A stretch of 64,000 nt of DNA from Candidatus Poriferihabitaceae bacterium (GCA_965243285.1 OZ251537.1:1161019-1225018); one strand, 5' to 3'; positions 5,011 to 52,675 are shown, numbered from the stretch's first letter. Numbers and translations: made by a program. Notes: generated by a model not told the origin, from the sequence alone.

Positions 5011-5769
5011 GGCAGTTAATATGATGGGTGAAAACGAGGGCAATAATATAGCGAATAGCGAGCGGCTGTGGGTGGGGCGGGCGGATTTACGCGGGCGGGA
5101 TGGACGCGTCTCGGGCGATGGGCAGCGATAGCCTAAGGCCATGGGCGATGTGAAATGTCGCCTGCTGGCGCCGCGAATGTTGTTATGCGTTGTACCGCAC
5201 TGAGCGGCGACGACAATAAAAACACCAGTTGCGCCAGTGATTTCGGCATGAACGCGAAATCCGGCCACAACCATGACCTTGAGGTAATCCCATGAATATC
5301 CACGGCATTAGTTTTGGAGGAAAACAATCCGCAAGTGGTCGAGCGTATCGGCGCGTGCTATCCGGAGTTTTATACCCTCAATGACAAGTGTTTTTTTAGT
5401 CAGCAGCACGAATATTTCGTCTAAAGCGGCCAGCAGAGTGTGCCTCACTAACGATAAGAAATCAGGCGAGGTGGCCGGCGGGGTGTTTAAACTAAACGGC
5501 GGCCATGCAGGGTTTGCGGACCCGGGGTTATGGGAAGGGCTTGGCGATGATGGCAGACATGAGTCCGCGAAATAAAAATGTGTACCACATTCACACCCTG
5601 CAGATAACGCCTGATGATGGCGGCAGCGTACGGGATGAAAAAATTAGCTGCTATTCCCCTACAGGGTTTCGCTACAAACCCGGTCGATTAAGGATTTGTG
5701 TGGGATTTATCTATCTAAATCTGCACGGTGGGTTTGATTTTTCGCTTTGGCTTTTGCTTTTAACGTTTT

Positions 5770-5835
5770 ACTCCCCCCCTTGCTTCATCTGGGGGAGTCA
5801 AATCAGGCGGCTTTATCGCCTGATTTGGTGGGGGG
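5770..5835 (+). repeat. Two-hairpin core module (class I)
   Basis: ACTCCCCCCC-loop-GGGGGAGT, then CAAATCAGGCG-GCTTTAT-CGCCTGATTTG, then GTGGGGGG. Confidence 0.8.
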
Positions 5836-5954
5836 CTGTTGATGTTGGTCTTTTTGCTTTTGCCTTTAAATCTTTAACCCATCAGCCCAAATGATGGAAA
5901 AGTAAAAACCAACAGCTAAGTCAAAAGCCAAGTCAAAAGCGAAAAGTCAAAAGT

Positions 5955-6026
5955 CCCCCCACCAAATCAGCCCGAGCCTATCGGCTCGGTCAGATTTGAC
6001 TCCCCCCAGATGAAGCGGGGGGGAGT
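5955..6026 (-). repeat. Two-hairpin core module (class I variant with expanded second hairpin)
   Basis: Reverse complement of the module. The second hairpin keeps CAAATC/GATTTG but carries an inserted CCGAGCC-tatc-GGCTCGG stem. Confidence 0.7.
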
Positions 6027-6189
6027 AAAACAAAAGCCAAAGCCAAAGCCAAAATCAAAAACCAAAAATCAAAATCAAAAGCAAAATCCACCGTGCAGAT
6101 TTAGGACTATAAATCCCAAATCAAAAGCAAAGTCCTCAATCAAACAAGCGAATTTAGGTCTATACATCCCTACCCCATCCAACATCCCC

Positions 6190-6220
6190 AAAAAAAAGGG
6201 CGACTCTTTTGAATCGCCCT
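6190..6220 (-). terminator. Rho-independent terminator downstream of the adhesin gene
   Basis: On the minus strand: GGGCGA-ttcaaaagag-TCGCCC followed by T8 (A8 at 6190-6197 on plus), about 30 nt after the stop at 6252. Confidence 0.7.
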
Positions 6221-6251
6221 TAATGTTTGGGGGGGGGGGTAGCAGAATGCG

Positions 6252-9200
6252 TTAAAACTGCAGTTCGCCTTTTAGTAGGATGGTGTGGGCGGCGGCGGGG
6301 GTTTGGCGGCGTTCGCCTACTAGGTTTAAGGTGGCGTGCGAACCGGCATGCGAGGCTGAGCGCCAGTTTATGCCGAGGCGGTGGGCGGTGGTGCTGCCTA
6401 AGCGCATTTCACCATACGGGGTTAGCATGGCGGCGGTGGTTTTTAGCGCTAGGCCGTAGGCGAGGCGGGCTTCCATGCTGGCACGATAATCAGCACTGGC
6501 GGCGGTGGCCGCTGGCGGTAAATCGCGCTGCCAGAGTTGCGCCATGTCGCTTTGCGCCGGCCCGTAGGAGGGGCTCAACTCCAGCGAAAACCCTTGCCCA
6601 TCGGCACCGGCGGCCATGGCGATGCTGCCGCTCGCGCCCCACTCCGAATATTCGCCGGGCATGATGACGGCGTGGATGCGACCATGCGCGCTGTAACGCC
6701 CACCGCTGAAGCGCAAGCCAGCGCCCACTTGGGCCGCGGTCCCGGTTTCGCCATCGCCGCCGTTATAGCGCAGACCGAATTCCACGCTCGGCTCAATCGC
6801 GCCGCCGCCTAAGGCACGCCGACCGCTGGCTTCGAGGCCAAAACGGGCGCGGGTGGTGGCGGTTTGCATGGCGAGGGCGGCGTTGCCTTCCACTTCCAAC
6901 TCGCTGCGGGAGATTTCGCCGCGCAAGCGCAAGGTGGTGGCGGATTGTTGCCAGATTTCGCCGCTGCCGCCGAGCCCTAAGGCGCGCAGGGCTACATCCG
7001 ATTCGACTGCCGCGCCGCCGCTGGGGGTGATTTCCAAATCGCCCTGGCCGTAGCCGATGGTTGCCCATAAATCCACGCCGCCGACTTGCCAGCCGAGATA
7101 GGGATTTACGCTGGTCATGTCCATGCCATGCGCGCCGGCGGCGGCGGCGCGATAGTCGATGTCGCTTTGTAATTTAGAGACGGCGACGCCGAGCAGCAAA
7201 TCATGACGCACGCGGGTATCGACGCCAAGGTGGAAGCCGTATAACTCGCCGCCCCAATCCACGCCGCCGCTATCGCCGGACATTTCGCGGTATTCGCCGC
7301 TGCCCCATAACACCGTGCCGCCAGAGCCGCCGGCGGCGTAACCGGCGGTGGTACCAGCCACGCCATAGCCCCCATGGCCGCCATTTAGGGCGAGGCTGAA
7401 TGAGGTGCCAGCCAACATGGTTTTGGAGTCGCGTTGGTCGGCCGCCTTTGGCTGGCCATGGGCGGCCAGGGCGGCCGCTAGGCTGGTTTGGCCGCCGAGG
7501 GCGAAGCCGTTGCCGCTGCCATTGGCGCGCTCGATGCGGGTGGTGATGGCGGCGGTGGCGCTGGCGGTCATGGCGATGGCGACTTGCGGCAGCAGCACTT
7601 CATTGACGGCGGCCAGGGCGGCGCTGCCGGAGGTGACGGTGACGACGATATCTTCTTCGATGACGTTGGGGGCGGGAGCGGAATCGGTGACCCGGTAAGT
7701 CAGGGTGACGGCGCCTGGCTCGCTCGGCGTGCCGGATAAAATGCGGCTGGTTTCGTCAAAAGACAGCCCGGGCAACACGTTGTTTTCGGCGTTATCTATC
7801 GGCACATTATCCGGCGCTGGCCCCAGCAGGGCGTAGACCACAGCGCCGATGCCGCCGCTGACTTCCGGCAAGGTCGCATCGACCTCCTCATCCACCAAGA
7901 ATTGGTAGCTGAAAAGTGCATCGTCAGCAAACAATAGGTCGGCGACGAAGGGGAAGGCGTAGGCCACGGTCACCCCGCCGTCGGTGGTCGATGGGGTCGC
8001 CGGCGGGCGGGCGGTGTAGGTGAGCGTGGTGGTCACGGACGCCTCCGGCGTGCCGGACAAAACGCGCGTGGCTGGGTCAAAGGACAATCCGGACACCAGT
8101 TCTTCTACCTCGACGGTCAGAGTGGCATCGTCAGGACCCGCCCCGACCAAGGCGTAAACATAATTGCCATTGGGGTCGGCGCGCACCGCCGGCAGCGTTA
8201 TATCGACGCGGTCGCCGAGGGGGAATACAGCGGCAAAAATCTCGCGAAATCGGGCTGGCGAGACCACCTCGCCATCATCATCCACCAACACTTGGTCGAT
8301 GGTAAGGCTGAAAATCGCCGGCTCGGAGGCGTTGCCGTGATTGTCGGTGGCGTGGTAGGTGAGATCGATAGCGGCGGCGGCGGCGCTCGGCGTGCCGCTT
8401 AAAATACGGGCCTCGACGGCAGCGTTGAACGACAGCCCAGGCACGGCCGTCGACAAGGGTTGACCGTTGGTCCCGGTTAGTGAGTACACCACCGAATCGG
8501 TGCTGCTCATCGCCATCGGCAGGGTGAGGCGGGCGATAGCATCGCCTACCGAGTAAGTTTGGTCAGCCAACGGCAAGGCGGCGGCGGCGAAAATCGGGCC
8601 GGTGACGATGGCGGTGAATTCCACCTCGGTGAAATTGGCTGATGGACTCTCGGAATCGGTGGCGCGATAGATGAGCGGGATTTGGGCGATGACGCTGGGC
8701 GTGGCGGTGAGGATGCGGGTGGCGGGATCGAAATCCAGCCAAGCGGGCAAAGCCGGGGCGTTAGGGCTGCCGCCGAGGCCGAACAGGGCATGGAAGCGGG
8801 GCGCGATGCCGCCGCTGGCTTCGGGCAGGGTTTGGGTGCTGGTGGCGCCGGCCGGATAGGTGAATTCGGCGGCTAGGGCCGGCGGCGGGAAGGCCAGCCC
8901 GGGGATCACCGTCACCGCGAAGGTTTGCCGTGCCAAGCCGCCGTCGGCGTCGGTGGCGGTGTATACCAGCGAGGTGGTGGTGTTGTCGGCGACATAGGAC
9001 GGCGTGCCGCTCAAGGTACGCGCCATGGCGCCGCTGGCTATGGGGTTGAAACTCAGCCCGAGCGGCAAGCCGTTATTGGCGGCGGCCGGGTTTTGCCCGG
9101 TTAGGGTGTAGGTGAGGTCCCCGGGCACGGTGCTGTTCGCGGCCGACAAACCTAAGGCGCTGATGGGGCGGCCGGCGGTGTATTGCTGGGGCCCCGGCGT

Positions 9201-11798
9201 CGGGGCGGTGAACACCGGGCCGGCCACGGTGACCATAAACATGAGCGTGGTTGGGTTGCCGAAACTGTCGGTGGCGATGTAGGCGAGCGGTACGGCGGCG
9301 GCCGGGTTGCTCGGCGTGCCGCTTAAGGTGCGGGAATGGGCGGCGAACACCAGCCCGGGCGGCAAATTGGGGGTGGCCGCGGTGCCGCCGACGCCGACTA
9401 AGGCGTATGAGACGCCGGCGCCACGGGCTAAGGGCAGGATGAGCGGCGCGATGGCGGTGCCGGAAGCGAAGGTTTGGTCGCCCGGGGCGGCTTCGAACAC
9501 CGGGCTGGTGATGGCGACCTCAAACATGGCCTCGGCCGCATTGCCGTAACGGTCGGCGGCCGCATAGGTGAGGGTGACGGCGGCGGCGAGGACGCTGGGG
9601 CGACCGCCCAAAGCGCGGGAAGTGGGGTTGAAAATCAGCCCGGGCGGCAAATCATCGCTGGATTCATCGGCATCTTGGCCGCGCAAAGTGTAGGTGAGCG
9701 CGCCGAAGCCGCTCGCCGTCGGCAGCGCTTTGGCGGCGATGGCGAGGCCGATCGGATAGGCTTCATCGGCGATGGGCACATCATCGCCGCCGAACGCCGG
9801 GCCGCCGGTCACAGTGAACACAAAATTGGCGGTGGCGGTAGCGCCGGCGGTGCTGGTGGCGACATAAGTGAGCGTGGCAGCGCCGACCCTTTGCGCCGTG
9901 CCGGTCAGGGTGCGGACGGCGGCGGCGTTATCGAAACTCAACCCGGGCGGTAAATTGGCGCCATTGGCGGTGTCGACCACGCCATCCGCCGCCGTGCCGT
10001 ATAACGCATAGGAGATGATGGCGGAATCGTTGCCGCCATCCATGGCCACACTTAATGTGGCCTCCACCGCAGCACCGACTTGATGCGATATATCGGTCAC
10101 GGCGCCGTCAAAAGTCAGCCCGGTGATGACCACATCGAAACCATGGGTGATGGCATTGCCGAAGGGGTCGGTGGCGGTGTACACCCAAGCGTAGGTGCGG
10201 ATGCCGCTGATGGAGTCGGTGGGCGTGCCGCTCAAAACGCGGCTGGTTGGGTTGAAATTCAGCCCGCCGGGCAAAGCGCCGCCGCCATCGACTAACAAGG
10301 TGTAGCCATTGTTCTCGCCGCCGATGGCGGGCAGCGTCAGGGCCGCGATAGGCACGCCGGTGTTATAGGTTAAATCGGTGTCGGTGGGTAACGGCGGGTT
10401 ATCCTCCGGCGGCTCGGTGAGGAAAGCCGGGCCGGTGATGGTTACCGTGAAATTGCTGGCCACTGAGGCGGCGGCGGCATCGACTCCGGCATCGAACGCG
10501 CCGTACACCAAAACCACATCGCCGGTCATGCGTTGTGGGCGGCCGCTCAGCACGCGGGCGGTGGCATCGAACGCCAAGCCCGGGATGGCGGTGGCTAGGG
10601 GCGTATTGTTTTCCCCGGTTAGGGTGTAGGCCGGCGTGCCGGCGCCGTTGGCGGCACCTAAGGTTAGCGGCGTGATGAGGCCCGGGGCGGCGCCTTGCAC
10701 GGCGTAGGTTTGGTTATCCACGGCGGGCAACTGGCGGCGTACGGCGAGCGTGGCGGTGGCTTGGGCCGCGGCGCTGGTGCTGTTGGTTACGCCGTAGGTC
10801 AACACGCTGGCGGCTTGGGTGGTGGGAGCGCCGGACAGCGTGCGAGTGGCGGCCTCGAAACTCAAGCCGGGCGGCAAATTCGCATCGGCCGGGGTCGCAT
10901 CGGGGCCACGCAAGGTGTAGGTTTGCGTGCCCGTGGCGGCGCCGGTGGCGAGCGGTAAAACTTGGCTGTTTTGTTGCTCGATTCGCCAGTCGAGGTAGGT
11001 GGGCGTGGCCAGGCTTAATGTGCCGGCGTTGGCGTGCACGGTGATGCTGATGTTGTTGGTGCGCTGCGCACCTTCGGTAGTAACTTGATAGGTCGCTGTA
11101 TAGGCGCCGGTGCGCGTCGGCGTGCCGGATACCACCAGCGTGCTGGAATCAAAAGTCAAGCCGGGAATGGCCACATGCAGCGGCTCTTGGGTACGGCTGA
11201 AGCGATTGCTCGGGTCGAAGCCGGTGAATCGCACGGTGATATTGCCGCCGCCGGTGCGCCTCGGCATGGTCAAGGGGATGATAGGGAAACCGCGCACATA
11301 GTTGGTATGGGTGGGCTGCGGGAATGCGAATTCTTCGCGTTGGTCTATGGGGTCGAACCACGAGCGCTCGATGGTTAAGTTAAAATGGGCGGTGACGGAG
11401 ACGCCGGCGGCATTGGTGGCGGTGTAGGTCAGCCGGGTGCGGCCAAATGCGGTGGTGTCGCCATAAATCATGCGCGGCGAGACGGCGCGAAAAGTGACCC
11501 CGGCTGGCAGTTTGAGGTCGGTGGCGTCGGTGGCGGCGTCGTACCCCGGCCCGGTCAAGGTATAGGTCAGGGTGGCCGTATCGGCTTCGTTATTCGATGT
11601 GGCGCGGCTCAAATTACGCCCACTGGTGATGCCGTAATAGTAGAAAACATTGGTTTGCGATAACTGCAAAGTGCCGGCGGCGGCAGCGGCGCCGGTATTG
11701 GCGGCGGAATTCGGAATCGGCTGTTGGGCCGCGGCCGAGGCCGCAAACCCTAATGCCGCGAGGGCGAAAATTAAGAAAAACGCGACGGTTTTTGACAT
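6252..11798 (-). CDS. Giant type Va autotransporter adhesin with cadherin/Ig-like (LPxGLxF..R.LSGTP) repeat passenger
   Basis: Signal peptide MSKTVAFFLIFALAALGFAASAAAQQ after a GGAG. Roughly 17 repeats of the ...YTLTG...LPPGLSF....R.LSGTP....LTY.A.D..GN... unit. C-terminal ~280 aa resembles an autotransporter beta-barrel (WGSGEYREMSG...GFHLGVD...) and ends in ...ELQF. Confidence 0.85.
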   Translation of the reverse strand: MSKTVAFFLIFALAALGFAASAAAQQPIPNSAANTGAAAAAGTLQLSQTNVFYYYGITSGRNLSRATSNNEADTATLTYTLTGPGYDAATDATDLKLPAGVTFRAVSPRMIYGDTTAFGRTRLTYTATNAAGVSVTAHFNLTIERSWFDPIDQREEFAFPQPTHTNYVRGFPIIPLTMPRRTGGGNITVRFTGFDPSNRFSRTQEPLHVAIPGLTFDSSTLVVSGTPTRTGAYTATYQVTTEGAQRTNNISITVHANAGTLSLATPTYLDWRIEQQNSQVLPLATGAATGTQTYTLRGPDATPADANLPPGLSFEAATRTLSGAPTTQAASVLTYGVTNSTSAAAQATATLAVRRQLPAVDNQTYAVQGAAPGLITPLTLGAANGAGTPAYTLTGENNTPLATAIPGLAFDATARVLSGRPQRMTGDVVLVYGAFDAGVDAAAASVASNFTVTITGPAFLTEPPEDNPPLPTDTDLTYNTGVPIAALTLPAIGGENNGYTLLVDGGGALPGGLNFNPTSRVLSGTPTDSISGIRTYAWVYTATDPFGNAITHGFDVVITGLTFDGAVTDISHQVGAAVEATLSVAMDGGNDSAIISYALYGTAADGVVDTANGANLPPGLSFDNAAAVRTLTGTAQRVGAATLTYVATSTAGATATANFVFTVTGGPAFGGDDVPIADEAYPIGLAIAAKALPTASGFGALTYTLRGQDADESSDDLPPGLIFNPTSRALGGRPSVLAAAVTLTYAAADRYGNAAEAMFEVAITSPVFEAAPGDQTFASGTAIAPLILPLARGAGVSYALVGVGGTAATPNLPPGLVFAAHSRTLSGTPSNPAAAVPLAYIATDSFGNPTTLMFMVTVAGPVFTAPTPGPQQYTAGRPISALGLSAANSTVPGDLTYTLTGQNPAAANNGLPLGLSFNPIASGAMARTLSGTPSYVADNTTTSLVYTATDADGGLARQTFAVTVIPGLAFPPPALAAEFTYPAGATSTQTLPEASGGIAPRFHALFGLGGSPNAPALPAWLDFDPATRILTATPSVIAQIPLIYRATDSESPSANFTEVEFTAIVTGPIFAAAALPLADQTYSVGDAIARLTLPMAMSSTDSVVYSLTGTNGQPLSTAVPGLSFNAAVEARILSGTPSAAAAAIDLTYHATDNHGNASEPAIFSLTIDQVLVDDDGEVVSPARFREIFAAVFPLGDRVDITLPAVRADPNGNYVYALVGAGPDDATLTVEVEELVSGLSFDPATRVLSGTPEASVTTTLTYTARPPATPSTTDGGVTVAYAFPFVADLLFADDALFSYQFLVDEEVDATLPEVSGGIGAVVYALLGPAPDNVPIDNAENNVLPGLSFDETSRILSGTPSEPGAVTLTYRVTDSAPAPNVIEEDIVVTVTSGSAALAAVNEVLLPQVAIAMTASATAAITTRIERANGSGNGFALGGQTSLAAALAAHGQPKAADQRDSKTMLAGTSFSLALNGGHGGYGVAGTTAGYAAGGSGGTVLWGSGEYREMSGDSGGVDWGGELYGFHLGVDTRVRHDLLLGVAVSKLQSDIDYRAAAAGAHGMDMTSVNPYLGWQVGGVDLWATIGYGQGDLEITPSGGAAVESDVALRALGLGGSGEIWQQSATTLRLRGEISRSELEVEGNAALAMQTATTRARFGLEASGRRALGGGAIEPSVEFGLRYNGGDGETGTAAQVGAGLRFSGGRYSAHGRIHAVIMPGEYSEWGASGSIAMAAGADGQGFSLELSPSYGPAQSDMAQLWQRDLPPAATAASADYRASMEARLAYGLALKTTAAMLTPYGEMRLGSTTAHRLGINWRSASHAGSHATLNLVGERRQTPAAAHTILLKGELQF

Positions 11799-12025
11799 GG
11801 GGGAGGGCTCCGTATGAGGTGAAAGAATGTCGGTGCTCGGTCGAGCGGAATAGGGCGGCGGCGTTGAAAAATCGGCCGTAAACGCTACTAGAAAATGGGC
11901 TGGAATGTAAGCTGAAATATAGGCTGAAAAAATGACGCTTGCCCAGGTTGGTTTACTAATATGGTGGGGTTTATAGTCATAAAATCCCATTATTAGGGTG
12001 CTATTTTGAGGTATTGATTTTGATC

Positions 12026-12102
<77 letters not shown>

Positions 12103-12113
12103 ATTAATGCTTT

Positions 12114-12178
12114 GCTCCACCCTATCTTTTTAGGGGGGAGCCAAAACTGGCGGCTTCATTGCCAGTTTTGGTGGGGGG
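12114..12178 (+). repeat. Two-hairpin core module (class II)
   Basis: GCTCCACC-loop-GGGGGGAGC, then CAAAACTGGCG-GCTTCAT-TGCCAGTTTTG (one G:T pair), then GTGGGGGG. Confidence 0.8.
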
Positions 12179-12400
12179 TGCGTTTGATTTTGATTTTGAT
12201 TTTCGCCTTTGATTTTGATTTTCGCCTTTGATTTTGATTTTCGCCTTTGATTTTGATTTTTCGCTTTTCGCTTTTCGCTTTTCGCTTTTGACTTGGCTGT
12301 TGGCTTGATTTTGACTTGGCTGTTGGCTTTTACTTTTCCCCTAATTTGGGCTGATGGGTTGAAGATTTAAAGGCAACAGCAAAAAGACCAACCTCAACAG

Positions 12401-12465
12401 CCCCCCACCAAATCAGGCGATAAAGCCGCCTGATTTGACTCCCCCAGAAAAAGCTAAGGTGGAGT
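12401..12465 (-). repeat. Two-hairpin core module (class I)
   Basis: Reverse complement reads ACTCCACC..GGGGGAGT CAAATCAGGCG GCTTTAT CGCCTGATTTG GTGGGGGG. Confidence 0.8.
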
Positions 12466-12685
12466 AAAACGTTAAAAGCCAAAAGCCAAAAGCCAAAAGC
12501 CAAAGCGAAAAGCCAAAGCGAAAAGCCAAAGCGAAAAGCCAAAAGCCAAAGCGAAAAGCCAAAGCCAAAGCCAAAGCGAAAGCCAAAGCCAAAGCAAAAA
12601 TCAAACCCAACCTCCCTAAATCAGCCGCTGACCTCAAAAAACGCCAACCGAACTGCAGATTTAGGACTATAAACCCCTAAAATAT

Positions 12686-13028
12686 TTTGGCGGCACCGCG
12701 TCGCTGGCGCCGAACTTTTTCTACACCGCGGATTTGGGCGTCCACTGGCGCTACGGCCTCGGCGTCGCTTCGCCATACGGCTTGAGCGCCGACTATCGCG
12801 CCGCTTGGGTGGGGCGCTATCGCGCCATCAAATCCGCGCTGAAAAGCGTGGAAATCAACCCCGCCGTGGCGGACCAGCGCGGCGCTCAGCCTCGGCGTCG
12901 GCATCACTTGGCTGCACGCTAACGCCGAACTCAGCCACGCGCTGTACATTCCCGTGTCACAAACCGACTCCGTGGACGCCAGCGCCACCGCCATCTTCGC
13001 CCTGCGCCTGCGCCTCGACCTCGATTAG
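12686..13028 (+). pseudogene. Remnant of a FadL/OmpP1-family outer-membrane transporter (5'-truncated, frameshifted, internally deleted)
   Basis: ...NFFYTADLGVHWRYGLGVASPYGLSADYRAAWVGRYRAIKSALKSVEINPAVA... is FadL-like. The frame then shifts to ...LSLGVGITWLHANAEL.... Only ~110 codons remain, and the fragment begins exactly at the edge of repeat element B. Confidence 0.5.
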
Positions 13029-35401: not shown

Positions 35402-36286
35402 ATGTCCGAGAAACTAATTTTAGATTTCCCCGTCCTGAATATCGACAGCGGCGATTTTAATGAATGTGTAAATTATAAAGTCACCGCCGTGCGAGACGAT
35501 AAAAATATTAACATAACGCACACGTTAAGCGGCGCATCTTTCATACAAAATTTGGTAAAAGATAAGCGCGCAGTTTTTTCGGTTCTATTGGTTTATCAAA
35601 ATAGCTCAGAGCGGCAGATATGTCTATGCAAAAATTTTGAACTCGCCGGCGATTCGATAATCGCCATCCAAACCATACCGTTGAAATTTTCCTATGCGCC
35701 GAAAATAAAGCCGAGCATCGTGCTAAAGGAGTCACAAACTATCGTAGTAGACTACGCTGCGGGCTTGACCGGTTTTTGGCAACATGGTGAGCGTTTTGAT
35801 GTTCCCGCATTGGCGCGCCTCGCTGTCGGCGAGGTGTTGCAATTTTCGGACGGCGGCTTATCGTCATTAATGAGGATCGAACTCGATACAAACTTGTCCG
35901 AAGGCGAAATGAAAACTATCGTTTATGAGCAAGCCGGCGAAGGCGACATACCGGTGACTTTGCTCTGCGGGGAAGGCGTGTTTTCGCATCTACAATCAGT
36001 CACAGGAAAAAAACCACCCACCAACCCCGTCGAAGCCGCACGCTCCGCCATCATTACCCAAGCACTATGCGCAGTGTATGCCTACATGTACAAACTATCC
36101 GCCAAAGAACAAAAATCATCCACCGAGGAAAAATCGGGCGGCGTGTTAAATGCTCACTTGGATAGCATGATTGAAAAAAATCCGTCTTTGAATTGGAATA
36201 ATGAAAATTTTGACCCGAGTTGGGCGGCCACCGTGATGAATCCTTATGCGGTGCGTGCTATCGCCATGGAGATGAACAATGATTGA
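35402..36286 (+). CDS. Hypothetical protein (cassette gene 3, no recognisable motif)
   Basis: Starts 4 nt after the GHKL gene stop. 294 aa. Codon usage resembles its neighbours. Confidence 0.6.
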   Translation: MSEKLILDFPVLNIDSGDFNECVNYKVTAVRDDKNINITHTLSGASFIQNLVKDKRAVFSVLLVYQNSSERQICLCKNFELAGDSIIAIQTIPLKFSYAPKIKPSIVLKESQTIVVDYAAGLTGFWQHGERFDVPALARLAVGEVLQFSDGGLSSLMRIELDTNLSEGEMKTIVYEQAGEGDIPVTLLCGEGVFSHLQSVTGKKPPTNPVEAARSAIITQALCAVYAYMYKLSAKEQKSSTEEKSGGVLNAHLDSMIEKNPSLNWNNENFDPSWAATVMNPYAVRAIAMEMNND

Positions 36287-37268
36287 GTATCAAAAATTTG
36301 ACGAGGCGAAGTGGTTGGCTTTTGGCAAAAGGTTATTACCCACTGTCGCCAAACTAAACTTATCCAGTGAGCAAGTAGAGTTTTTGGAGGCATGTCGAGA
36401 TGGTCAAGCGGCTTTTTTGGATTATTTGGACACCCATTTTCTCTATGAAAAAGGGGCTGTCGTTGGCCAAAAAGTTGTGCCTTTTCGGTACAAATTCAGT
36501 GAAAATGAATTTTTCCTGATCAGCACCAAAGATACCCAAAAAATTATCTGGGATGGCTTCAAGGCGGTGGATGAGGAAACCAAATTTTCATGCGGATTTT
36601 GGGGCTATATCATCGTAGAAATGCTGAAAAACGGTGCCATCGAAAAACCCAGCGATTTAGCATCCACCAAAAACATGACTGGGCATGCGCACATAGATGA
36701 TGCACTCGCCGGCACCCCGAAAAATGTAGACGACTGCGTTAGAAGAATTTTACGCTCCATGTGCAATTCGAAAGCAAGGGGGCATCGAATTATTTTCTAT
36801 GATTTTCCTTTGGGGAGAACTTATTGGCGATGGCATTGGGCGCATAAGATGGCTGGGTATGAAATGCCCGTGGATGAGTTATCTGCGCATGGACTGTCCA
36901 TACATGATAAGAGCGCTGATATTAACTTAGATTTTGCACAAGTGTTGGCGGCATTGGATATGTCTAATTATCGAGTATTTGCTGAAAAAATGCATACCGG
37001 AAGAAGTTTTATCAGCGCCCCGAACATCCTCGGTGGGCTGTTACTATTTTTGGCGCATTCTGATAAGTCGAATAAGGTTAACAACATCGGCATCATCATC
37101 GACCGATTGGCTTATTTGAGTTCATGGAAGGCTATCGAGTTGCAATCGCCGGCCGATAATCAACTCGAGATAGAAGCCATCGCCGACAACCTCGCCGCCC
37201 ATCCGCCCACCAAACAGCCCATCAAACCCGCCACCGAACAATCCGCCGCCGGCTCCACCCGACCCTAG
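36279..37268 (+). CDS. Hypothetical protein (cassette gene 4, no recognisable motif)
   Basis: 8-nt overlap with gene 3 (ATGATTGA). 329 aa. Pro/Ala-rich tail. Confidence 0.6.
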   Translation: MIEYQKFDEAKWLAFGKRLLPTVAKLNLSSEQVEFLEACRDGQAAFLDYLDTHFLYEKGAVVGQKVVPFRYKFSENEFFLISTKDTQKIIWDGFKAVDEETKFSCGFWGYIIVEMLKNGAIEKPSDLASTKNMTGHAHIDDALAGTPKNVDDCVRRILRSMCNSKARGHRIIFYDFPLGRTYWRWHWAHKMAGYEMPVDELSAHGLSIHDKSADINLDFAQVLAALDMSNYRVFAEKMHTGRSFISAPNILGGLLLFLAHSDKSNKVNNIGIIIDRLAYLSSWKAIELQSPADNQLEIEAIADNLAAHPPTKQPIKPATEQSAAGSTRP

Positions 37269-37292
37269 CCTCGTCGCCCTATTCCCAGCCGC

Positions 37293-37331
37293 CCATCAAT
37301 GTGGAAGAACTCGATTCGTTGAAGGGTGATG
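37293..37331 (+). repeat. Direct repeat copy 2 (displaced nuoK 3' end)
   Basis: Encodes ..INVEELDS.. as nuoK does. A 1-nt deletion puts the homologous stop (TGA versus TAA) out of frame. Confidence 0.9.
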
Positions 37332-37350
37332 TTGATTTTCTCTCCGCTCC

Positions 37351-37419
37351 GCTTTCGCTTTTCGCTGCTACGCTTCACCCTCCCCGCTTAACCTGGATAA
37401 ATTAAGTCAAAACTGACTT
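37351..37419 (+). repeat. Decayed copy of the class II two-hairpin module
   Basis: cgcttttcgctgctacgcttcaccctccccgctta...aagtcaaaactgactt aligns with 47853-47910 of copy C (cgcttttcgctgttacgctttactccccccgcttta...gagtcaaaactggcgg). Confidence 0.55.
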
Positions 37420-37714
37420 ATTCCGACCAGCGCGCTTAAACCTCGCATGGATTTCCCTAAATCCTTAGTCCATCACCCCAAAACAAACCCCCCATAAATC
37501 CCCCATAAACCCACGCAAACACGCCATTCCACCTAAAATTCCCCTCAATCACCCAAAATTTCCCTCCCAACCCTCATAAAAGTGCATAATCCGCCGCCGC
37601 AAACTCCCGAGCCACCACGGACGCCGCCAGCGGCAAATTCGGCTGGGTGATAATGATGTATCAAAACACCCGCAACGAAAAAGGGCCAGAATCATCCCCG
37701 CTGATGATGTCTAT

Positions 37715-37773
37715 TGTCAATTAATCGACATCTTTATCGCCGTCCGTTGACAAGCAAACGGGGAGTGTATAAT
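37715..37773 (+). promoter_or_regulatory. Sigma70-like promoter with upstream near-palindrome for R-M cassette 3
   Basis: TTGACA (37747-37752) and TATAAT (37768-37773) with a 15-nt spacer, 37 nt before ATG 37811. The near-palindrome TGTCAATT/AATCGACA at 37715-37730 shares the TTGACA half-site. Confidence 0.45.
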
Positions 37774-37810
37774 ATTAAAACTTCGCCTAAACAAACAACC
37801 AATTCCCACA

Positions 37811-38776
37811 ATGAACAATCCCGACTTAAACGAGTCAAGTGCTGAAGACTCCAGCAACCACGTTCCAGCGAAACACAGTTTTGCGGTGCGTAGCGGCAAA
37901 AAAGTGTATGAAGGATTCAACGCAGAACGCAAGGTTCGCAACCGCAAAGCGAAAGAGCAAAAGCGTTTGGGCTATGAGGCGTTTAGCAAAGATTTTCCGA
38001 ATGAAAATCATCCACTGCCGCAAAAATTCACCGACAAAATTATCACCGGCGATAGTGCGCAAGTATTAAAAAAACTGCCCGCCAATTGCATTGACTTAGT
38101 GATGACTTCGCCGCCGTATAATTTCGGCTTAGACTATAGCGAACATGTTGACACCGATACTTGGCATGCTTATTTTGATAAACTTTTCTTGGTATTTGCT
38201 GAGTGCATTCGTGTCGTAAAACATGGCGGGCGAATCATCGTTAATGTCTCGCCACTATTTTCAGATTACATTCCCACGCATCATTTTGTTAGCAAGTTTT
38301 TTATTGATCAAGGGTTGATTTGGAAAGGTGAAATTTTGTGGGAAAAAAATAACTACAACTGTAAATACACCGCTTGGGGCAGTTGGAAAAGCCCGTCCAG
38401 CCCATACCTTAAATACACATGGGAATTCTTAGAAATTTTTTGCAAGGGTGATTTAAAGAAACCCGGCGAGCGTGCCAACATCGACATTACCGATGATGAG
38501 TTTAAAAAGTGGGTGAATGCCAAATGGTCGATTGCCCCCGAACACAAAATGAAAAAATACGGTCACCCGGCCATGTTTCCAGAGAAATTGGTGATGCAAG
38601 CGTTGAAATTGTTTAGTTTTCAAGGCGACATTGTGCTGGACCCTTTCAATGGAGCAGGCACAACGACTTCGGTTGCGCATCAATTCCAACGGAAATATCT
38701 TGGCATCGATACATCATCTGAGTATTGCAAAATCGCTGAAAACAGAATTATCGATAACGGAGGAATTTTTAAATGA
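37811..38776 (+). CDS. Beta-class DNA methyltransferase (SPPY motif; N4-cytosine or N6-adenine), cassette 3
   Basis: MTSPPYN, HPAMFPEKL, DPFNGAGTT. Long basic N-terminal extension. Confidence 0.85.
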   Translation: MNNPDLNESSAEDSSNHVPAKHSFAVRSGKKVYEGFNAERKVRNRKAKEQKRLGYEAFSKDFPNENHPLPQKFTDKIITGDSAQVLKKLPANCIDLVMTSPPYNFGLDYSEHVDTDTWHAYFDKLFLVFAECIRVVKHGGRIIVNVSPLFSDYIPTHHFVSKFFIDQGLIWKGEILWEKNNYNCKYTAWGSWKSPSSPYLKYTWEFLEIFCKGDLKKPGERANIDITDDEFKKWVNAKWSIAPEHKMKKYGHPAMFPEKLVMQALKLFSFQGDIVLDPFNGAGTTTSVAHQFQRKYLGIDTSSEYCKIAENRIIDNGGIFK

Positions 38777-39477
38777 ACACAGAACAAGAATTGCGCGAAA
38801 TTATCGGCGAATACAACACCGTTGTTAAAGTCGTTGATAAGGATGCCAAAGAAAGCGAAGACCATGCGTACGGCGGTTTTGTTCGTGAGGTAAAAGGAAA
38901 ACTACAGGAGCACATCACCGAATCGCTTATTATGGCTGCGTGGAATTCTGTAGGTGGCGACCCAGAGGTGTTAGAAATTAACAGCAAAAAAATATCCATC
39001 CCTATTAAGGAAGAATACCTTGACCGAATCGAAGATGACGAAGTTAAGAAGCATATCGCCCAAAATATAGATAACTATATTTACAAATTATCAGTTGATA
39101 AGCATGTTTTTGTCAACGGTGAATTTGTCATTGGCATTGAATGCAAGGCATTTACGGAAAACGCCATGATCAAAAGAATTTTGCTCGATTTTGATTTGCT
39201 AAAAACCCAGTATCCGAATTTATTATGCTATTTATTTCAATTAGAAAGTCAACTTGGCGGCGATTACAGAAAATTAACTAAACCAATTTTTGGCAGTCAC
39301 TCAACGCGAACTTTGCAATCATATTTTTCATGCGACTTAACTATTGTTACGCTGCTTGAAGGCGAGAGAGATATTGAACGGGCAATTCATAAGCCTGGGT
39401 GTTTTAAGGAATTGAACCTAGAGGTATTGCAAGATACAGTACATATTCTCGCCAAAGACATGCGGCAATTTTCGTAA
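38773..39477 (+). CDS. Putative Type II restriction endonuclease, cassette 3
   Basis: ATGA overlap with the methylase stop. Candidate PD-ExK core (SVDKHVF...VIGIECKA). AT-rich. Confidence 0.6.
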   Translation: MNTEQELREIIGEYNTVVKVVDKDAKESEDHAYGGFVREVKGKLQEHITESLIMAAWNSVGGDPEVLEINSKKISIPIKEEYLDRIEDDEVKKHIAQNIDNYIYKLSVDKHVFVNGEFVIGIECKAFTENAMIKRILLDFDLLKTQYPNLLCYLFQLESQLGGDYRKLTKPIFGSHSTRTLQSYFSCDLTIVTLLEGERDIERAIHKPGCFKELNLEVLQDTVHILAKDMRQFS

Positions 39478-39697: not shown

Positions 39698-41659
39698 ATG
39701 AAAACCATCTACCTCGCCATCCCCCTCATCTGCCTAGTCTCTTCCATACTCATCGGACTGTTTGGGCGGCGGATGGGGCGTGTTGGGGCGCATTCTATCG
39801 CCATCGCCGGGGTGGCGGCGGCGTTTGTGTTATCGCTGGTGGTGTATGTGGATGTGCGCGCTGGCAATTATTTCAATGATGTGATTTATACCTGGGCGGT
39901 GAGCGACAATGTGCCGCTGAATATCGGTTTTTTGATCGACCAACTCAGCGCCATGATGATGGTGGTGGTCACTTTCGTGTCGTTGATGGTGCACATCTAC
40001 ACCATCGGCTATATGGCTGGCGACCCCGGCTATCAGCGTTTTTTTTGCTACATCTCGCTGTTTACTTTCGCCATGTTGATGTTGGTGATGGCGAACAATT
40101 TTATGCAGTTGTTTTTCGGCTGGGAGGCGGTGGGTTTAATTTCATACCTATTAATTGGTTTTTGGTATGAACGCGACAGCGCTATTTTTGCCAACCTCAA
40201 AGCATTTTTAGTCAACCGCGTGGGTGATTTTGGCTTCCTGCTCGGCATCGCCGCGGTCATGGCATTATTCGGCTCGCTGGATTACGCCGCGGTGTTCGCC
40301 GGCGCCGACGGCATGCGCGAGCAGACCGTCGCCACCCCGTTCGGCGAGTGGAAGTGGATCACCATCATCTGCCTATTGTTATTCGTCGGCGCCATGGGCA
40401 AATCGGCGCAAGCGCCGTTGCATGTATGGCTGCCGGATTCCATGGAGGGACCCACCCCCATCTCGGCGCTGATTCACGCCGCCACCATGGTCACCGCCGG
40501 CATCTATATGGTGGCGCGTATGTCGCCGTTGTTCGAGTTATCGGAGACGGCTTTATCGGCGGTGCTCATCATCGGCGCCACTACCGCCATGCTCATGGGG
40601 TTGGTGGGCTTAGTGCAAAACGACATCAAGCGCGTGGTGGCGTATTCCACCTTATCGCAGTTGGGCTATATGACCGTGGCGTTAGGCGCATCGGCCTATC
40701 AGGTGGCGATTTTTCATCTCGGCACGCACGCCTTTTTCAAGGCGTTGCTGTTCCTCGCCGCCGGCTCGGTCATCATCGCCATGCATCATGAGCAAGACAT
40801 GCGAAAAATGGGCGGGCTTAAATCGCTGATGCCGGTCACTTATATAACCGCCGCCGTCGGCTCCTTGGCGCTGGCCGGCATCCCCCCCTTCGCCGGCTTT
40901 TTCTCCAAAGACGCCATCATCGAAGCCACCCGCCACAGCGCCATCTGGGGCGCCGGTTATGCCTATGTCATGGTGCTACTCGGCGTATTCGTCACCGCCT
41001 TATATGCATTTCGATTATTGTTTATGACCTTCCACGGCAAAAATCGCTCGGCGCCGCACATCCGCCGCCAGTTGCGCGAACCACCGGGCGTGGTCACCTG
41101 GCCGCTGGTGGCGCTGGCCATCCCCTCGCTGTTGGTCGGCGGAATGTTTTTCGAAGCCGTTATCGATGGCAGTTTTTTCGGCGATGCAATTCGCGTCGCC
41201 CCGCAGCATGATGTGATGGCGCAACTCGCCGCCGTAAACCCAGACAAACATGGCATAGCGTTGATCTTCGCCACCTTACTGCACAGCGTATTAGCGCCGC
41301 CGCTGTGGTTGGCGGCCGCTGGCATCGGCTGCGCCTGGTATGGCTATTGCAAGAGTCCGGCCTGGCCGGGGCGCGTAAAAACCGCCTCCGGGCCACTCTA
41401 TCACCTGCTGAAAAACAAGTATGGATTCGACGCCCTGTACCAAGTGCTATTCGCGCGCGGCTCGGTGGCGCTCGGGCACTTTTTATCGGCGCGTATCGAT
41501 GGCGGCATGGTGGATGGCTTCATCGTAAACGGCACGGCGCGCGCGGTGGGGCTATGCGCCGGCGCCATGCGCACCATCCAAACCGGTCTCACCTATCACT
41601 ACGCATTCGTGATGATCGTTGGCCTGTTTTGTATGATCACCTATTTCGTGTGGTGGTAG
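39698..41659 (+). CDS. nuoL: NADH-quinone oxidoreductase subunit L
   Basis: ...FFGWEAVGLISYLLIGFW...GKSAQAPLHVWLPDSMEGPTPISALIHAATMVTAG... Confidence 0.95.
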   Translation: MKTIYLAIPLICLVSSILIGLFGRRMGRVGAHSIAIAGVAAAFVLSLVVYVDVRAGNYFNDVIYTWAVSDNVPLNIGFLIDQLSAMMMVVVTFVSLMVHIYTIGYMAGDPGYQRFFCYISLFTFAMLMLVMANNFMQLFFGWEAVGLISYLLIGFWYERDSAIFANLKAFLVNRVGDFGFLLGIAAVMALFGSLDYAAVFAGADGMREQTVATPFGEWKWITIICLLLFVGAMGKSAQAPLHVWLPDSMEGPTPISALIHAATMVTAGIYMVARMSPLFELSETALSAVLIIGATTAMLMGLVGLVQNDIKRVVAYSTLSQLGYMTVALGASAYQVAIFHLGTHAFFKALLFLAAGSVIIAMHHEQDMRKMGGLKSLMPVTYITAAVGSLALAGIPPFAGFFSKDAIIEATRHSAIWGAGYAYVMVLLGVFVTALYAFRLLFMTFHGKNRSAPHIRRQLREPPGVVTWPLVALAIPSLLVGGMFFEAVIDGSFFGDAIRVAPQHDVMAQLAAVNPDKHGIALIFATLLHSVLAPPLWLAAAGIGCAWYGYCKSPAWPGRVKTASGPLYHLLKNKYGFDALYQVLFARGSVALGHFLSARIDGGMVDGFIVNGTARAVGLCAGAMRTIQTGLTYHYAFVMIVGLFCMITYFVWW

Positions 41660-41663
41660 CGGT

Positions 41664-43157
41664 ATGGAAAATCATCTGCTCAGCGCGTTAATTTGGTTGC
41701 CGGTTATCGCCGGCGCGGTGATTCTCGGCCTCGGCGGACGCGGGCCGACGGGTCAGCACGCCGCCGTGGCGAAAAATCTCGCGCTCGGTTTTTCTATCGC
41801 GATTTTTTTGCTGAGCGTGCCGTTATATGCGCGCTTCGATGCCGCCACCGCCGCCATGCAATTCACCGAGCGTGCAAGTTGGGTGCCGGCCTTCAACATC
41901 CACTACGCGCTTGGCGTAGACGGCATCTCCATGCCGCTCATCTTGCTGACCACGCTGATGACGGTGGTGGTCATCATCGCCGGCCGCCGCGCCATCACCC
42001 AACGAGTGGCGCATTACATGGCGGCATTTTTGATTATGGAAGGGTTGATGATCGGCGTGTTCGCGGCGCTCGATGCGGTGCTGTTTTATCTCTTTTGGGA
42101 ATCCATGTTGATCCCCATGTTCTTAATCATCGGCATATGGGGCGGGCCGAATCGCATCTACGCCACCATCAAATTTTTCCTCTACACCCTGTTAGGCTCG
42201 CTGCTGATGTTGGTCGCCCTGCTGTACTTACGCCACGCCAGCGGCGGCAGTTTCAGCATTTTGGATTATCACGCCCTACCGCTGGATCTAGCGGCGCAAA
42301 CCCTAATCTTCTTCGCCTTCTTCGCCGCCTTCGCAGTCAAGGTGCCCATGTTTCCGGTGCACACTTGGCTGCCCGATGCGCATGTGGAGGCGCCCACCGG
42401 CGGCTCGGTCATCCTCGCCGCCATCATGCTGAAAATGGGCGGCTACGGCTTCCTGCGTTTCAGCCTGCCCATCACCCCGGACGCCAGCCGCGATTTAGCC
42501 TGGCTGATGATCGCGCTGTCCTTAGTCGCGGTGGTGTATATCGCGTTAGTGGCCTTAGCGCAGCGCGACATGAAAAAACTTATCGCCTATTCATCCATCT
42601 CGCACATGGGCTTCGTCACCCTCGGCTTGTTCGTGTTCAACGCCCATGGCGCCGAGGGCGCGATGATGCAGATGATCTCGCACGGCTTCATTTCCGCGGC
42701 GTTGTTTTTGTGCGTCGGCGTCTTGTACGACCGCATGCACTCGCGCATGTTGGATAGCTACGGCGGCATCGCCAAACCCATGCCGGTGTTCGCCGCCTTC
42801 ATGGTGTTATTCGCCATGGCGAATTCCGGGCTGCCCGGCACCTCGGGTTTTGTCGGTGAATTTTTAGTCATCCTCGGCGCCTTCCAATTCGATGCCTGGG
42901 TGGCCGCCGCCGCCGCCCTCACCCTAATTTTCGGCGCCGCCTACACCTTGTGGATGGTCAAGCGCGTCATCTACGGCAAAACGCCATCCGATGAAGTGGC
43001 CGCCTTGCCCGATTTAAGCGCGCGCGAAGTCACCTTCATGTCCATGTTGGCCGCCATGGTGTTGTTAGTCGGTATCTGGCCGAACCCCATACTCGAAGTC
43101 ATGCACGCCACTATCGATAACCTCTTAGCGCATGTCGCGCTCAGCAAATTGCCGTAA
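41664..43157 (+). CDS. nuoM: NADH-quinone oxidoreductase subunit M
   Basis: ...FAVKVPMFPVHTWLPDAHVEAPTGGSVILAAIMLKMGGYGFLRF... Confidence 0.95.
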   Translation: MENHLLSALIWLPVIAGAVILGLGGRGPTGQHAAVAKNLALGFSIAIFLLSVPLYARFDAATAAMQFTERASWVPAFNIHYALGVDGISMPLILLTTLMTVVVIIAGRRAITQRVAHYMAAFLIMEGLMIGVFAALDAVLFYLFWESMLIPMFLIIGIWGGPNRIYATIKFFLYTLLGSLLMLVALLYLRHASGGSFSILDYHALPLDLAAQTLIFFAFFAAFAVKVPMFPVHTWLPDAHVEAPTGGSVILAAIMLKMGGYGFLRFSLPITPDASRDLAWLMIALSLVAVVYIALVALAQRDMKKLIAYSSISHMGFVTLGLFVFNAHGAEGAMMQMISHGFISAALFLCVGVLYDRMHSRMLDSYGGIAKPMPVFAAFMVLFAMANSGLPGTSGFVGEFLVILGAFQFDAWVAAAAALTLIFGAAYTLWMVKRVIYGKTPSDEVAALPDLSAREVTFMSMLAAMVLLVGIWPNPILEVMHATIDNLLAHVALSKLP

Positions 43158-43210
43158 ATCCGCGCTGTAATTTACGCTGCTAGTTAACATGGTCACCCGC
43201 CAACATACCT

Positions 43211-43403
43211 ATATATGTATGTTTATATTTATATCGATATCGATATCGATATCGATGTTGATATGTTATCGATAATGTATCGATGATATATCGATGTTGA
43301 TGTTGATGTCGATGTCGATGTTTATGTCGATATTGATATTTATATCGATGACAATGCCCATATCGATATTGATATCGATATAAATATCGACAACTTTGAT
43401 TTA
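43211..43403. repeat. AT-rich hexamer-periodic microsatellite built of ATCGAT/GATATC-type palindromes (nuoM-nuoN spacer)
   Basis: ...tatcgatatcgatatcgatatcgatgttgatatgttatcgataatgtatcgatgatatatcgatgttgatgttgatgtcgatgtcgatg... Confidence 0.9.
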
Positions 43404-43441
43404 ATCCCGCGCCACAACCCAACCCGCCGCGCAAAACTGCC

Positions 43442-45148: not shown

Positions 45149-45272
45149 TTTTTAATACCGCTAATTTTCCGCGCAACATTTTCGATACCGGAATTTTTCG
45201 CGCTGGTTTTTCGATGCCGCTGGTTTTCGACGCTGCTGAGTTTCTCGCCCGCTATTTTTCCGCTTGCCGCTC

Positions 45273-47793: not shown

Positions 47794-48209
47794 GGCATTT
47801 ATATACCTAAATGCACAGTTTGATTGTTGCTTTTTCGCTTTTTGCTTTTCGCTTTTCGCTGTTACGCTTTACTCCCCCCGCTTTATCTTGCGGGGGAGTC
47901 AAAACTGGCGGCTTCATCGCCAGTTTTGGTGGGGGGTACTTTTGATTTTGATTTTGACTTTGCTTTTCGCTTTTCGCTTTTGATTTTCGCTTTTGATTCC
48001 ACTTCCCTTCCGCCTTCCGCCTTCCGCCTTCTCCTTATAAATTTCCCCCATCAACCGCAAAGGTAAAAATCAACAGCCAACATCAACCGCCAAAGCCAAA
48101 ACAAAAATCAACACCAAAAACCAAAAATCAAAACCAAAATCAAAGACAAAATCAAAGACAAACAACACCCAAACCGCAGATTTAGATACACCAGCCGCAC
48201 ATAAATCCC
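47794..48209. repeat. Nested-palindromic intergenic element, copy C (single module)
   Basis: Left end GGCATTTATATACCTAAATGCACAG, right end CCGCAGATTTAGATAC...ATAAATCCC. T/G-rich then A/C-rich microsatellites, and (CCGCCTT)3. Confidence 0.75.
47871..47936 (+). repeat. Two-hairpin core module (class II)
   Basis: ACTCCCCCC-gctttatcttgc-GGGGGAGT CAAAACTGGCG GCTTCAT CGCCAGTTTTG GTGGGGGG. Confidence 0.8.
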
Positions 48210-50545: not shown

Positions 50546-50603
50546 GTAGACTCTCCTAAATGGATTGATTTAAGGGAGAACAATGTAACCGCTGTTGGTT
50601 TGA

Positions 50604-52635: not shown

Positions 52636-52643
52636 GAAGCCTT

Positions 52644-52675
<32 letters not shown>

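Follow-up and report, generated by a model that had tools for sequence, protein, structure and literature searches.

A 64,000-nucleotide stretch of the genome of Candidatus Poriferihabitaceae bacterium (GCA_965243285.1 OZ251537.1:1161019-1225018, one strand; hereafter the window, with positions counted from its first letter) contains eight copies of a module composed of two adjacent hairpins and a G-rich tail. The DNA is that of a GC-rich proteobacterium, and its genes include MttB/RACo, an autotransporter gene (6252-11990, minus strand), a tpiA-secG-tRNA-Leu-nuo region and a gene encoding a 3647-aa repeat protein (52966-63909). Seven of the modules are housed by four intergenic mosaic elements, termed A to D, with a GC content of 0.42-0.44, lower than the 0.57 of the window. 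The genes of the autotransporter and of the 3647-aa repeat protein have elements A, B and D at their flanks, and element C is located between the DUF5131 and EamA genes.

Modules and composite elements in the window

In each window copy, an invariant C/G hairpin (hairpin 1) is followed by hairpin 2 and then by the tail GTGGGGGG, the flanks of both hairpins reading GGAG(C/T)-C...G-GTGGGGGG. A strict pattern of hairpin 2 plus tail gave four matches in the window against 0.00 expected, and the 12-mer TTTGGTGGGGGG, with at most one mismatch, gave 10 matches against 0.55 expected. When folded as single-stranded DNA, each copy formed two adjacent hairpins from both strands, with z-scores of -5.4 to -7.6. 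Furthermore, a covariance model built from 34 distinct ungapped copies of other genomes, with the window excluded from the building (model R1), recovered 7/7 clean window copies at E values of 1.6e-15 to 2e-6.

Element A has the copy 5770-5835 (plus strand) in its left arm, with hairpin 1 ACTCCCCC, the ATCAG form of hairpin 2 and the tail GTGGGGGG (R1 52.3 bits, E 1.6e-15; DNA fold z -5.4), and 5955-6026 (minus strand; R1 25.1-44.4 bits) in its right arm, the hairpin 2 of which is a 16-bp stem with two mismatches. In element B, the left arm contains 12114-12178 (plus strand), a copy of the GCTCC type with AACTG in hairpin 2 and the pair G12152:T12160 (R1 46.7 bits, E 1.2e-13; fold z -5.7), and the right arm contains 12401-12465 (minus strand; 42.2 bits). 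Element C holds a lone module at 47871-47936 (plus strand; 51.7 bits). Element D holds 52330-52395 in the left arm (plus strand; 40.4 bits), with the pair G52367:T52379, and 52571-52635 in the right arm (minus strand; 39.3 bits), the stem 1 of which, GCTCC...GGAAC, carries a C.A mismatch. These seven copies are positioned and built as described in a first-pass annotation of this DNA, which was made from the sequence alone; to them we add an eighth, decayed copy outside element D at 52786-52850 (plus strand; 11.9 bits, E 0.05).

The two forms of hairpin 2 recognized in that annotation, CAAATCAGGCG/CGCCTGATTTG and CAAAACTGGCG/CGCCAGTTTTG, indeed differ by two flipped base pairs, and stem 1 is indeed swapped between ACTCC/GGAGT and GCTCC/GGAGC. 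The loops of hairpin 2 are GCTTTAT, GCTTCAT or GATA. What had been taken for a second palindrome inserted into 5955-6026 is instead a third form of hairpin 2, CAAATCTGACCGAG..., common to this copy and the decayed one. The G:T pairs 52367:52379 and 12152:12160 are present as reported. The C.A of 52571-52635 is of the kind tolerated only on the strand opposite to the named one. Sequence comparison revealed that 12114-12178 shares 95% identity with the reverse complement of 52571-52635, and that the reverse complement of 12401-12465 together with the neighbouring centre shares 91% identity with 52330-52457. Within the window, the forms correspond to the two clonal arm types of a single heterodimer. 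Thus, only about two compensated events are visible here, and the strong covariation described below comes from other genomes.

The arms of the composite elements are laid out as tandem repeats of 6-7 nt, the module and further repeats; A (5836-5897), B (12337-12400) and D (52396-52457) also have a conserved centre next to one of their modules, with none in C. Element A (5702-6117, GC 0.44) is a long imperfect palindrome, reading inverted end, repeats, module, centre, repeats, inverted module, repeats and inverted end. Element B (about 11966-12677) has an interior inverted with respect to D, and its degenerate left end abuts the start codon of the autotransporter gene (11990); its arrays are a perfect (TTGCTG)x12.8 at 12026-12102 and (AAAAGCC)n at 12474-12610. 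Element C (about 47796-48211) consists of a single module, tandem repeats and degenerate inverted ends. Element D (52267-52772) is bounded by 21-nt inverted ends at 52267-52287 and 52752-52772, and its flanks ATTCTTAT / ATTCTCAT, which match at 7/8 positions, possibly represent an 8-bp target duplication; no such duplication was found at A, B or C.

The 21-nt end motif AGATTTAGGNCTATAAATCCC has six matches against 0.00 expected and bounds A and D on both sides. Its sites are 5702-5722, 6097-6117, 6150-6170 (standing alone), 12657-12677, 52267-52287 and 52752-52772. The motif is itself a small hairpin (GATTTA..TAAATC), and weaker look-alikes are found at 52880-52900 and 52925-52950. The hairpins of the centres at 5877-5897 and 52437-52457 differ by compensated changes, CCATCA/TGATGG in A and CTCATT/AATGAG in D. 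Repeat numbers vary between elements: the arm of D contains 8.3 copies of (TTGCTG)n (52644-52693), and (AAAAGCC)n is present in about 18 copies in B versus 3.4 in D. A distance of 36 nt separates the (TTGCTG)x12.8 array at 12026-12102 from the downstream start codon of the 1912-aa autotransporter (11990, minus strand), and slippage of the arrays could vary expression.

The module family in other genomes

Scanning one genome per species with the pattern GGAGYCAAAN{15,45}TTTGGTGGGGGG yielded at least 66 loci, from which the family statistics are derived. They belong to a sea-cave gammaproteobacterial metagenome-assembled genome (MAG), Pseudohongiellaceae, Rickettsiales MAGs, an 'Azospirillum' MAG, Hyphomicrobiales and other alphaproteobacterial MAGs. 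Over the window and the 66 listed loci, R1 has at least 152 matches, and one MAG contains at least 74 modules on 31 listed loci, including 23 identical 52-mers. The unit is 52-72 nt long with two hairpins, and its core outside the window reads (A/G)CTCCCCCC-TTG(A/C)-GGGGGAG(C/T), followed by a C...G hairpin and GTGGGGGG. Hairpin 1 (CTCCCCC/GGGGGAG) and the tail are almost identical across the alpha- and gammaproteobacterial MAGs. At the foot of hairpin 2, CAAA/TTTG is swapped in some copies for CGAAAAA, CGGCAGC or CAGAGGC, the closing C:G alone being constant. In three loci (L050 231-316, L057 235-319 and L061 1337-1420), 40-50 nt of unrelated sequence lie inside hairpin 2, with hairpin 1, the foot and the tail intact; hairpin 2 thus tolerates large insertions.

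The interior of hairpin 2 varies in sequence and is kept in pairing. Among the 34 ungapped copies used for R1, the inner five pairs each show three to four Watson-Crick types with zero single-sided changes; across genomes, the inner pairs take three to five types and single-sided changes are nearly absent. Among the matches listed, 111 distinct copies from alpha- and gammaproteobacterial MAGs have 95.5% of cells paired, with double changes at 12 of the 17 pairs (350 cells). None of the 500 shuffles equalled the observed score, and sliding the pairing partner lowered the paired fraction to 41%-68%. These comparisons strongly support selection on structure across the family, as the annotation had proposed. 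That the forms are merely clonal subfamilies of an incidentally palindromic repeat, with no structural selection, agrees with the clonal arm types and the roughly two compensated events of the window, and it was the outcome that the annotation had set against its own claim; family-wide, it fails by covariation. Considering the 350 double-change cells, the near absence of single-sided changes, the number of types at each inner pair, and the shuffled and slid controls, we regard it as extremely improbable.

Of 1812 cells tallied, 1715 are Watson-Crick, 16 are G:T or T:G and 11 are A:C or C:A. Wobble pairs are thus few and show no strand bias, and the strand argument drawn from the two G:T pairs of the window is not supported and does not generalize. 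Stem 1 alone has a weak bias, with eight T:G versus one C:A. Regarding the loops of hairpin 2, C-GNA-G triloops account for 31 of the 111 distinct loops and dominate in the gammaproteobacterial copies, and CTTG-type loops are found only in some alphaproteobacterial copies, of the short type. The C-GNA-G loop is of the d(GCGAAGC) type, an unusually stable DNA mini-hairpin.

In Rfam, the sole recurrent full-length match of the family is Whalefall-1 (RF01762), which was hit by 19 window-type modules at 18.8-28.8 bits in E-value scans, the gathering score being 37. A single doublet, head-to-head in a Rickettsiales MAG (locus L048), exceeded that gathering score, with 45.0 and 41.4 bits, and it lies 1.5 kb from a window-type doublet of the same MAG. 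Conversely, a covariance model from the published Whalefall seeds (model R2) matches 85 window-type modules, with 5955-6026 as the sole window copy (16 bits, E 0.028). The window had no RF01762 match at the gathering score, and its segment 5600-6300 had none at E<=10; one tRNA was the only match of the window to Rfam at the gathering score. Long matches to Rfam 'miRNA precursor' families were rejected as spurious, reflecting long inverted repeats, element A among them.

Whalefall-1 was described as two hairpins and a purine-rich tail, with no conserved downstream gene, from whale-fall metagenomes only (PMC2864571); by the motif description its hairpin 2 is often CUUG-capped. The published seeds are head-to-head doublets of two partner types. 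The arrangement is identical in both families: the pyrimidine/purine hairpin is followed by a neighbouring hairpin of variable sequence and then by the purine-rich tail. In the window type, hairpin 1 is CTCCCCC/GGGGGAG and the tail GTGGGGGG, whereas the Whalefall hairpin is TCTCCCC/GGGGAGA or TCCCTCC/GGAGGGA and the tail AGAGGGAGGAC; moreover, the CA linker is missing, and the window copies lack the CUUG tetraloop and have enlarged loops and an 11-bp hairpin 2. Judged by these matches, the family is homologous to Whalefall-1, although the latter was described as a small RNA (sRNA) of whale-fall metagenomes and the modules here are found in proteobacterial MAGs and behave as repeated DNA.

Among the matches listed, 56 of 58 adjacent module pairs are in inverted orientation, 33 being tail-to-tail and 23 head-to-head. 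Tail-to-tail doublets occur in the window, in the alphaproteobacterial MAGs and, in a few cases, in the sea-cave MAG; head-to-head doublets of R1-type modules occur only in the sea-cave MAG, where some spacers measure 7-19 nt. Copies of the Whalefall-1 type are mostly head-to-head, with two tail-to-tail pairs among them. Long and short hairpin-2 partners co-occur within doublets. No direct repeats were found flanking the doublets of the other genomes, and at intragenic copies the palindromy stops at the module heads.

In alphaproteobacterial MAGs, doublets lie in frame within the genes of MutS (two MAGs), UvrD, GlyS, class I LysS and BamA. Alignment of the MutS of locus L039 with E. coli MutS covers residues 23-632 and 681-936, leaving an insert of residues 633-680 that covers the doublet and falls between residues 603 and 606 of the E. 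coli protein. The UvrD and GlyS alignments are likewise interrupted at the doublet inserts. In the two MutS genes, the doublet, an insert of 129-135 nt, occupies the same loop in different frames and with the order of long and short modules reversed, indicating either independent events or an inversion. Since the module is open in two of three frames, the peptides SPL(A/E)GE..VGG and PPLRGSQ..GGG recur, and we infer from the open frames that the inserts are translated. A profile search with the doublet-encoded peptide returned five short hypothetical open reading frames (ORFs) only and was uninformative.

A linked gene was sought by all-against-all clustering of the ORFs of the 66 listed loci, which found nothing shared but DUF2748 in two MAGs and the MutS cases. 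In these two different alphaproteobacterial MAGs (L048 1864-3195 and L050 433-1713), the doublet is immediately upstream of a homologous DUF2748 gene, pointing to a preferred site or to an old insertion that has been conserved. The clean intergenic cases comprise 10 convergent, 14 co-directional and six divergent gene pairs, an unreliable statistic given the crude ORF calls. A scan of viral contigs yielded one chance match within a gene start, and a phage-borne family was thus rejected. A BLAST search of plasmids with a doublet gave no match, and a literature search with literal strings of the hairpin-1 sequence found none. No intrinsic terminator was found at the modules in a scan of 11900-12800, the tail being a G-run with no U-run (no T-run in DNA); the module was accordingly dismissed as an intrinsic terminator, that of the autotransporter gene lying elsewhere (6185-6225).

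Readings of the module

The unit comprises a near-invariant CTCCCCC/GGGGGAG hairpin, directly followed by a C:G-closed hairpin with a free but pairing interior, and the tail GTGGGGGG. We consider it probable, with moderate confidence, that this module of about 65 nt is one arm of a palindromic DNA repeat resembling repetitive extragenic palindromes (REPs) and bacterial interspersed mosaic elements (BIMEs), selfish rather than a working RNA. The family is of the kind of REPs, BIMEs and Rickettsia palindromic elements (RPEs), with kinship to Whalefall-1, and lies outside the GTAG and CGTC superfamilies, having no tag and a two-hairpin unit. Folding at the DNA level is favoured over RNA because pairs are almost exclusively Watson-Crick, units are obligately inverted, doublets are inserted in frame in genes in either order, and GNA triloops occur. 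Of the two molecules between which the annotation had left the choice, RNA or single-stranded DNA, the evidence thus leans toward the latter, RNA being less likely. In a putative model, the modules, as selfish and non-autonomous DNA, would spread by way of a folded single-stranded intermediate, in which a trans-acting protein would recognize the folded unit. Only copies able to fold would be propagated or kept, leaving compensatory changes. Hairpin 1 and the tail would form the sequence-specific recognition part, possibly locked as a triple helix, and hairpin 2 would act as a structural spacer.

Known repeats share several of these properties. REPs form head-to-head and tail-to-tail dimers, often heterodimers, with spacers of 20-100 bp, and their intragenic copies are concentrated in repair and tRNA-synthetase genes (PMC3733652). 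Like the REP, BIME and REPIN families, the modules are high-copy dispersed palindromes in inverted dimers, often heterodimers, with spacers of 13-100 nt, associated with other motifs in mosaics, with occasional in-frame copies in DNA-repair and tRNA-synthetase genes. They differ in having 52-72 nt, two hairpins and a G-tail, where a REP is a single imperfect palindrome of 20-40 bp, in lacking a GTAG or CGTC tag at their flanks, in being nearly identical in hairpin 1 and tail across alpha- and gammaproteobacterial MAGs, and in that no RAYT was found. RPE-4 and RPE-6 are REPs, and CGTC REPs have no dedicated transposase (PMC3733652). RPEs, too, are in-frame palindromic repeats in housekeeping genes that give extra peptide loops (PMC3733652), and translation is inferred in the present case; compared by description, RPEs are AT-rich, whereas the module family is GC-rich, extends beyond Rickettsia and has intergenic copies in the window. 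Integron attC sites resemble the modules in keeping structure while leaving the stem sequence free, but the modules have two hairpins and a tail and lack R/L boxes or a cassette context. The conservation of structure in attC reflects recognition as folded single-stranded DNA.

The tail suggests a further feature of the fold. Seven types of hairpin 1 have a tail that mirrors the purine arm: the window's type combines GGGGGAG with the tail GTGGGGG, the L048/wf1 type GGAGAGG with GGTGAGG, Whalefall type I GGGGAGA with AGAGGGA, and Whalefall type II GGAGGGA with AGGGTGA or AGGGAGA, and a degenerate metagenome scan added the arm types GGAGAGA, AGAGAGA and AGGGAGA. Over 16 distinct combinations, arm and tail agree at position 3 in 16/16 and at position 5 in 14/16, and both T and A are found opposite A:T pairs. 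The mirror total is 94 of 112, versus 81.2 +/- 3.1 for shuffled tails, with none of the 10000 shuffles equal; offset 0 is the sole register above the shuffles (z 4.1). These figures come from few independent events in related sequences, and position 7 usually disagrees. An alternative in which the tail forms a Watson-Crick helix with the 5' arm of hairpin 1 was rejected, as no register gave covariation.

In antiparallel purine-motif triplexes, the third strand as a rule mirrors the purine strand: G faces G:C, and either T or A faces A:T. Designed intramolecular DNA triplexes have the order pyrimidine arm, loop, purine arm, connector and G/T strand; such purine.purine.pyrimidine designs were reportedly described by Radhakrishnan and Patel in 1993. 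The module resembles these designs and the mirror repeats of H-DNA in its strand order and mirrored last strand, with T or A opposite A:T, and differs in that its connector is a whole hairpin and that the support is covariation in sequence. We tentatively suggest that the module may be a natural intramolecular purine-motif triple helix, serving as the single-stranded DNA recognition structure of a widespread selfish superfamily that includes Whalefall-1, which would then not be an sRNA. In this structure, the 3' G/T tail would fold antiparallel onto the purine arm of hairpin 1 through G*G:C, T*A:T and A*A:T triples, with hairpin 2 as a clamp or connector. To our knowledge, a natural purine-motif triple helix with a biological role would be unusual.

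Several observations weigh against a selfish REP-like repeat. A phmmer search with IS200 TnpA and E. coli RAYT queries found no Y1-like ORF in about 0.5 Mb, a sample far too small to exclude the Y1/RAYT partner suggested in the annotation, and no transposase, RAYT or other partner was identified among the window genes scanned with Pfam, which are those outside the nuo operon. Neither an empty site nor a presence/absence polymorphism was seen, and distribution is the only basis on which mobility is deduced. The unit is bigger than a classical REP, with two hairpins and neither tag. All window copies are intergenic, the in-frame copies being confined to related MAGs, and only about two compensated events are visible in the window. 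The high pairing of old, diverged copies could reflect a host function of each copy. Finally, CTTG-type loops occur in alphaproteobacterial copies, the T:G excess of stem 1 fits any single-stranded reading, RNA included, and Whalefall-1 was rated as certainly an RNA by Weinberg et al. ('RNA: Y'; PMC2864571).

The last three points are shared by the view that the module is a structured noncoding or cis-acting RNA, such as a 3'-UTR stabilizer or processing site, with selection on the RNA fold of one strand. It is also consistent with the strong covariation, the asymmetry of a module with its tail on a single side, the location of both window G:T pairs on the named strand, the occurrence of CTTG-type loops in short-type copies, Rfam's own reading of Whalefall-1, and the frequent transcription of REPs in general, which can function as RNA (PMC3733652). 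However, G:U would make up 0.9% of cells, not commoner than A:C, and the nearly constant inversion means that any transcript would contain one module in sense and another in antisense. With 7-19 nt, head-to-head spacers are too short for promoters, doublets lie in frame in MutS, UvrD, GlyS and LysS in either arrangement, no neighbouring gene is conserved, and no U-run terminator is present, the true terminator of the autotransporter gene (6185-6225) being elsewhere. A purine-motif triplex, if real, would be unexpected for RNA. We therefore judge an RNA unlikely. Less likely still, the modules would be double-stranded or cruciform DNA sites recruited by the host, in the way that BIMEs serve IHF, gyrase or nucleoid proteins, or phase-variation switches, formed with the tandem repeats, of the adjacent giant surface-protein genes. 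The proximity of A, B and D to the two surface-protein genes, the array 36 nt upstream of the autotransporter start codon, the repeat numbers of homologous arms (3.4 vs 18 and 8.3 vs 12.8) and the retention of Watson-Crick pairs alone, as cruciforms would predict, speak for such sites; but element C lies between unrelated genes, the family elsewhere has neither tandem repeats nor a link to surface genes, and such a regulatory role is impossible for the intragenic copies.

For the window itself, it is possible, although doubtful, that the 400-700 bp composite moves as a whole, as a miniature inverted-repeat transposable element (MITE) with 21-nt inverted ends mobilized by an external DDE transposase, in which the modules are passengers. 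The AGATTTAGGNCTATAAATCCC ends, the 7/8 match of the D flanks, the 88%-95% identity of composite arms between loci and the low GC of the composites argue for it. Against it, target duplications are absent from A, B and C; comparison with D shows the interior of B in inverted orientation to its own end segment; a solitary end motif is present at 6150-6170; and no transposase is found among the Pfam-scanned genes. The doublets of all other genomes lack these ends, so a MITE explains local spread only and not the module family. The composites resemble Correia/NEMIS-type MITEs in being 400-700 bp long and AT-rich, with terminal inverted repeats and one possible 8-bp duplication, and differ in their internal doublets and expandable repeats, the lack of a known parent insertion sequence, and a duplication at one of four elements. 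The REP-like doublets of the window may additionally ride in such a MITE-like composite.

If the REP-like reading is true, Whalefall-1, an orphan environmental sRNA of Rfam for 15 years, would become a branch of a REP/RPE-like DNA repeat superfamily that is present in proteobacterial assemblies of cultured-genome quality. The family provides a second, GC-rich case of in-frame palindromic repeats in repair and translation genes, extending the RPE puzzle of Rickettsia to other lineages. That hairpin 1 and tail hardly vary between the alpha- and gammaproteobacterial MAGs implies a protein partner, either conserved or shared by horizontal transfer, and this putative partner is now searchable by phyletic profiling. 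The mirror-repeat covariation offers a concrete, testable structural model. In the genome of the window, the elements mark hypervariable mosaic DNA beside giant surface-protein genes.

Other observations in the window

After the stop codon of the autotransporter gene, the minus strand of 6185-6240 contains a canonical intrinsic terminator, the stem GGGCGA...TCGCCC with T8 behind it. About eleven consecutive G, which are C on the coding strand, precede this terminator, and repeats of similar sequence, TGGGGGGGCT, are found at 51958-51982. The ORF of the 3647-aa protein (52966-63909) is largely made up of about 20 tandem repeats of 321-324 bp (56510-63067), six of which are at 91% identity. The D-Ala-D-Ala ligase gene (Ddl, 45264-46508) contains an in-frame 12-bp tandem repeat, CGGCCAATAACT x8.4, at 45999-46100, which encodes ...NSANNSANNSANNSANNSVTDSANDSAHDSAH...; the Pfam C-terminal domain of the protein falls into two stretches. 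An AT-rich array of degenerate ATATCG x27 lies at 43231-43390 between two antiporter-like nuo genes (41664-43157 and 43442-44932).

The region 36279-39477 carries an N6/N4 DNA methylase gene (37811-38776) between two Pfam-less ORFs, just upstream of three antiporter-like nuo genes (39698-44932) and apparently within the NADH dehydrogenase operon. Its appearance is that of an inserted cassette of the restriction-modification type. Between elements C and D, the region 49559-51958 contains a phage-type integrase gene (49559-50545, minus strand) beside a 340-aa ORF with matches to a PLD nuclease and a truncated SNF2/ResIII helicase, and may be an island remnant.

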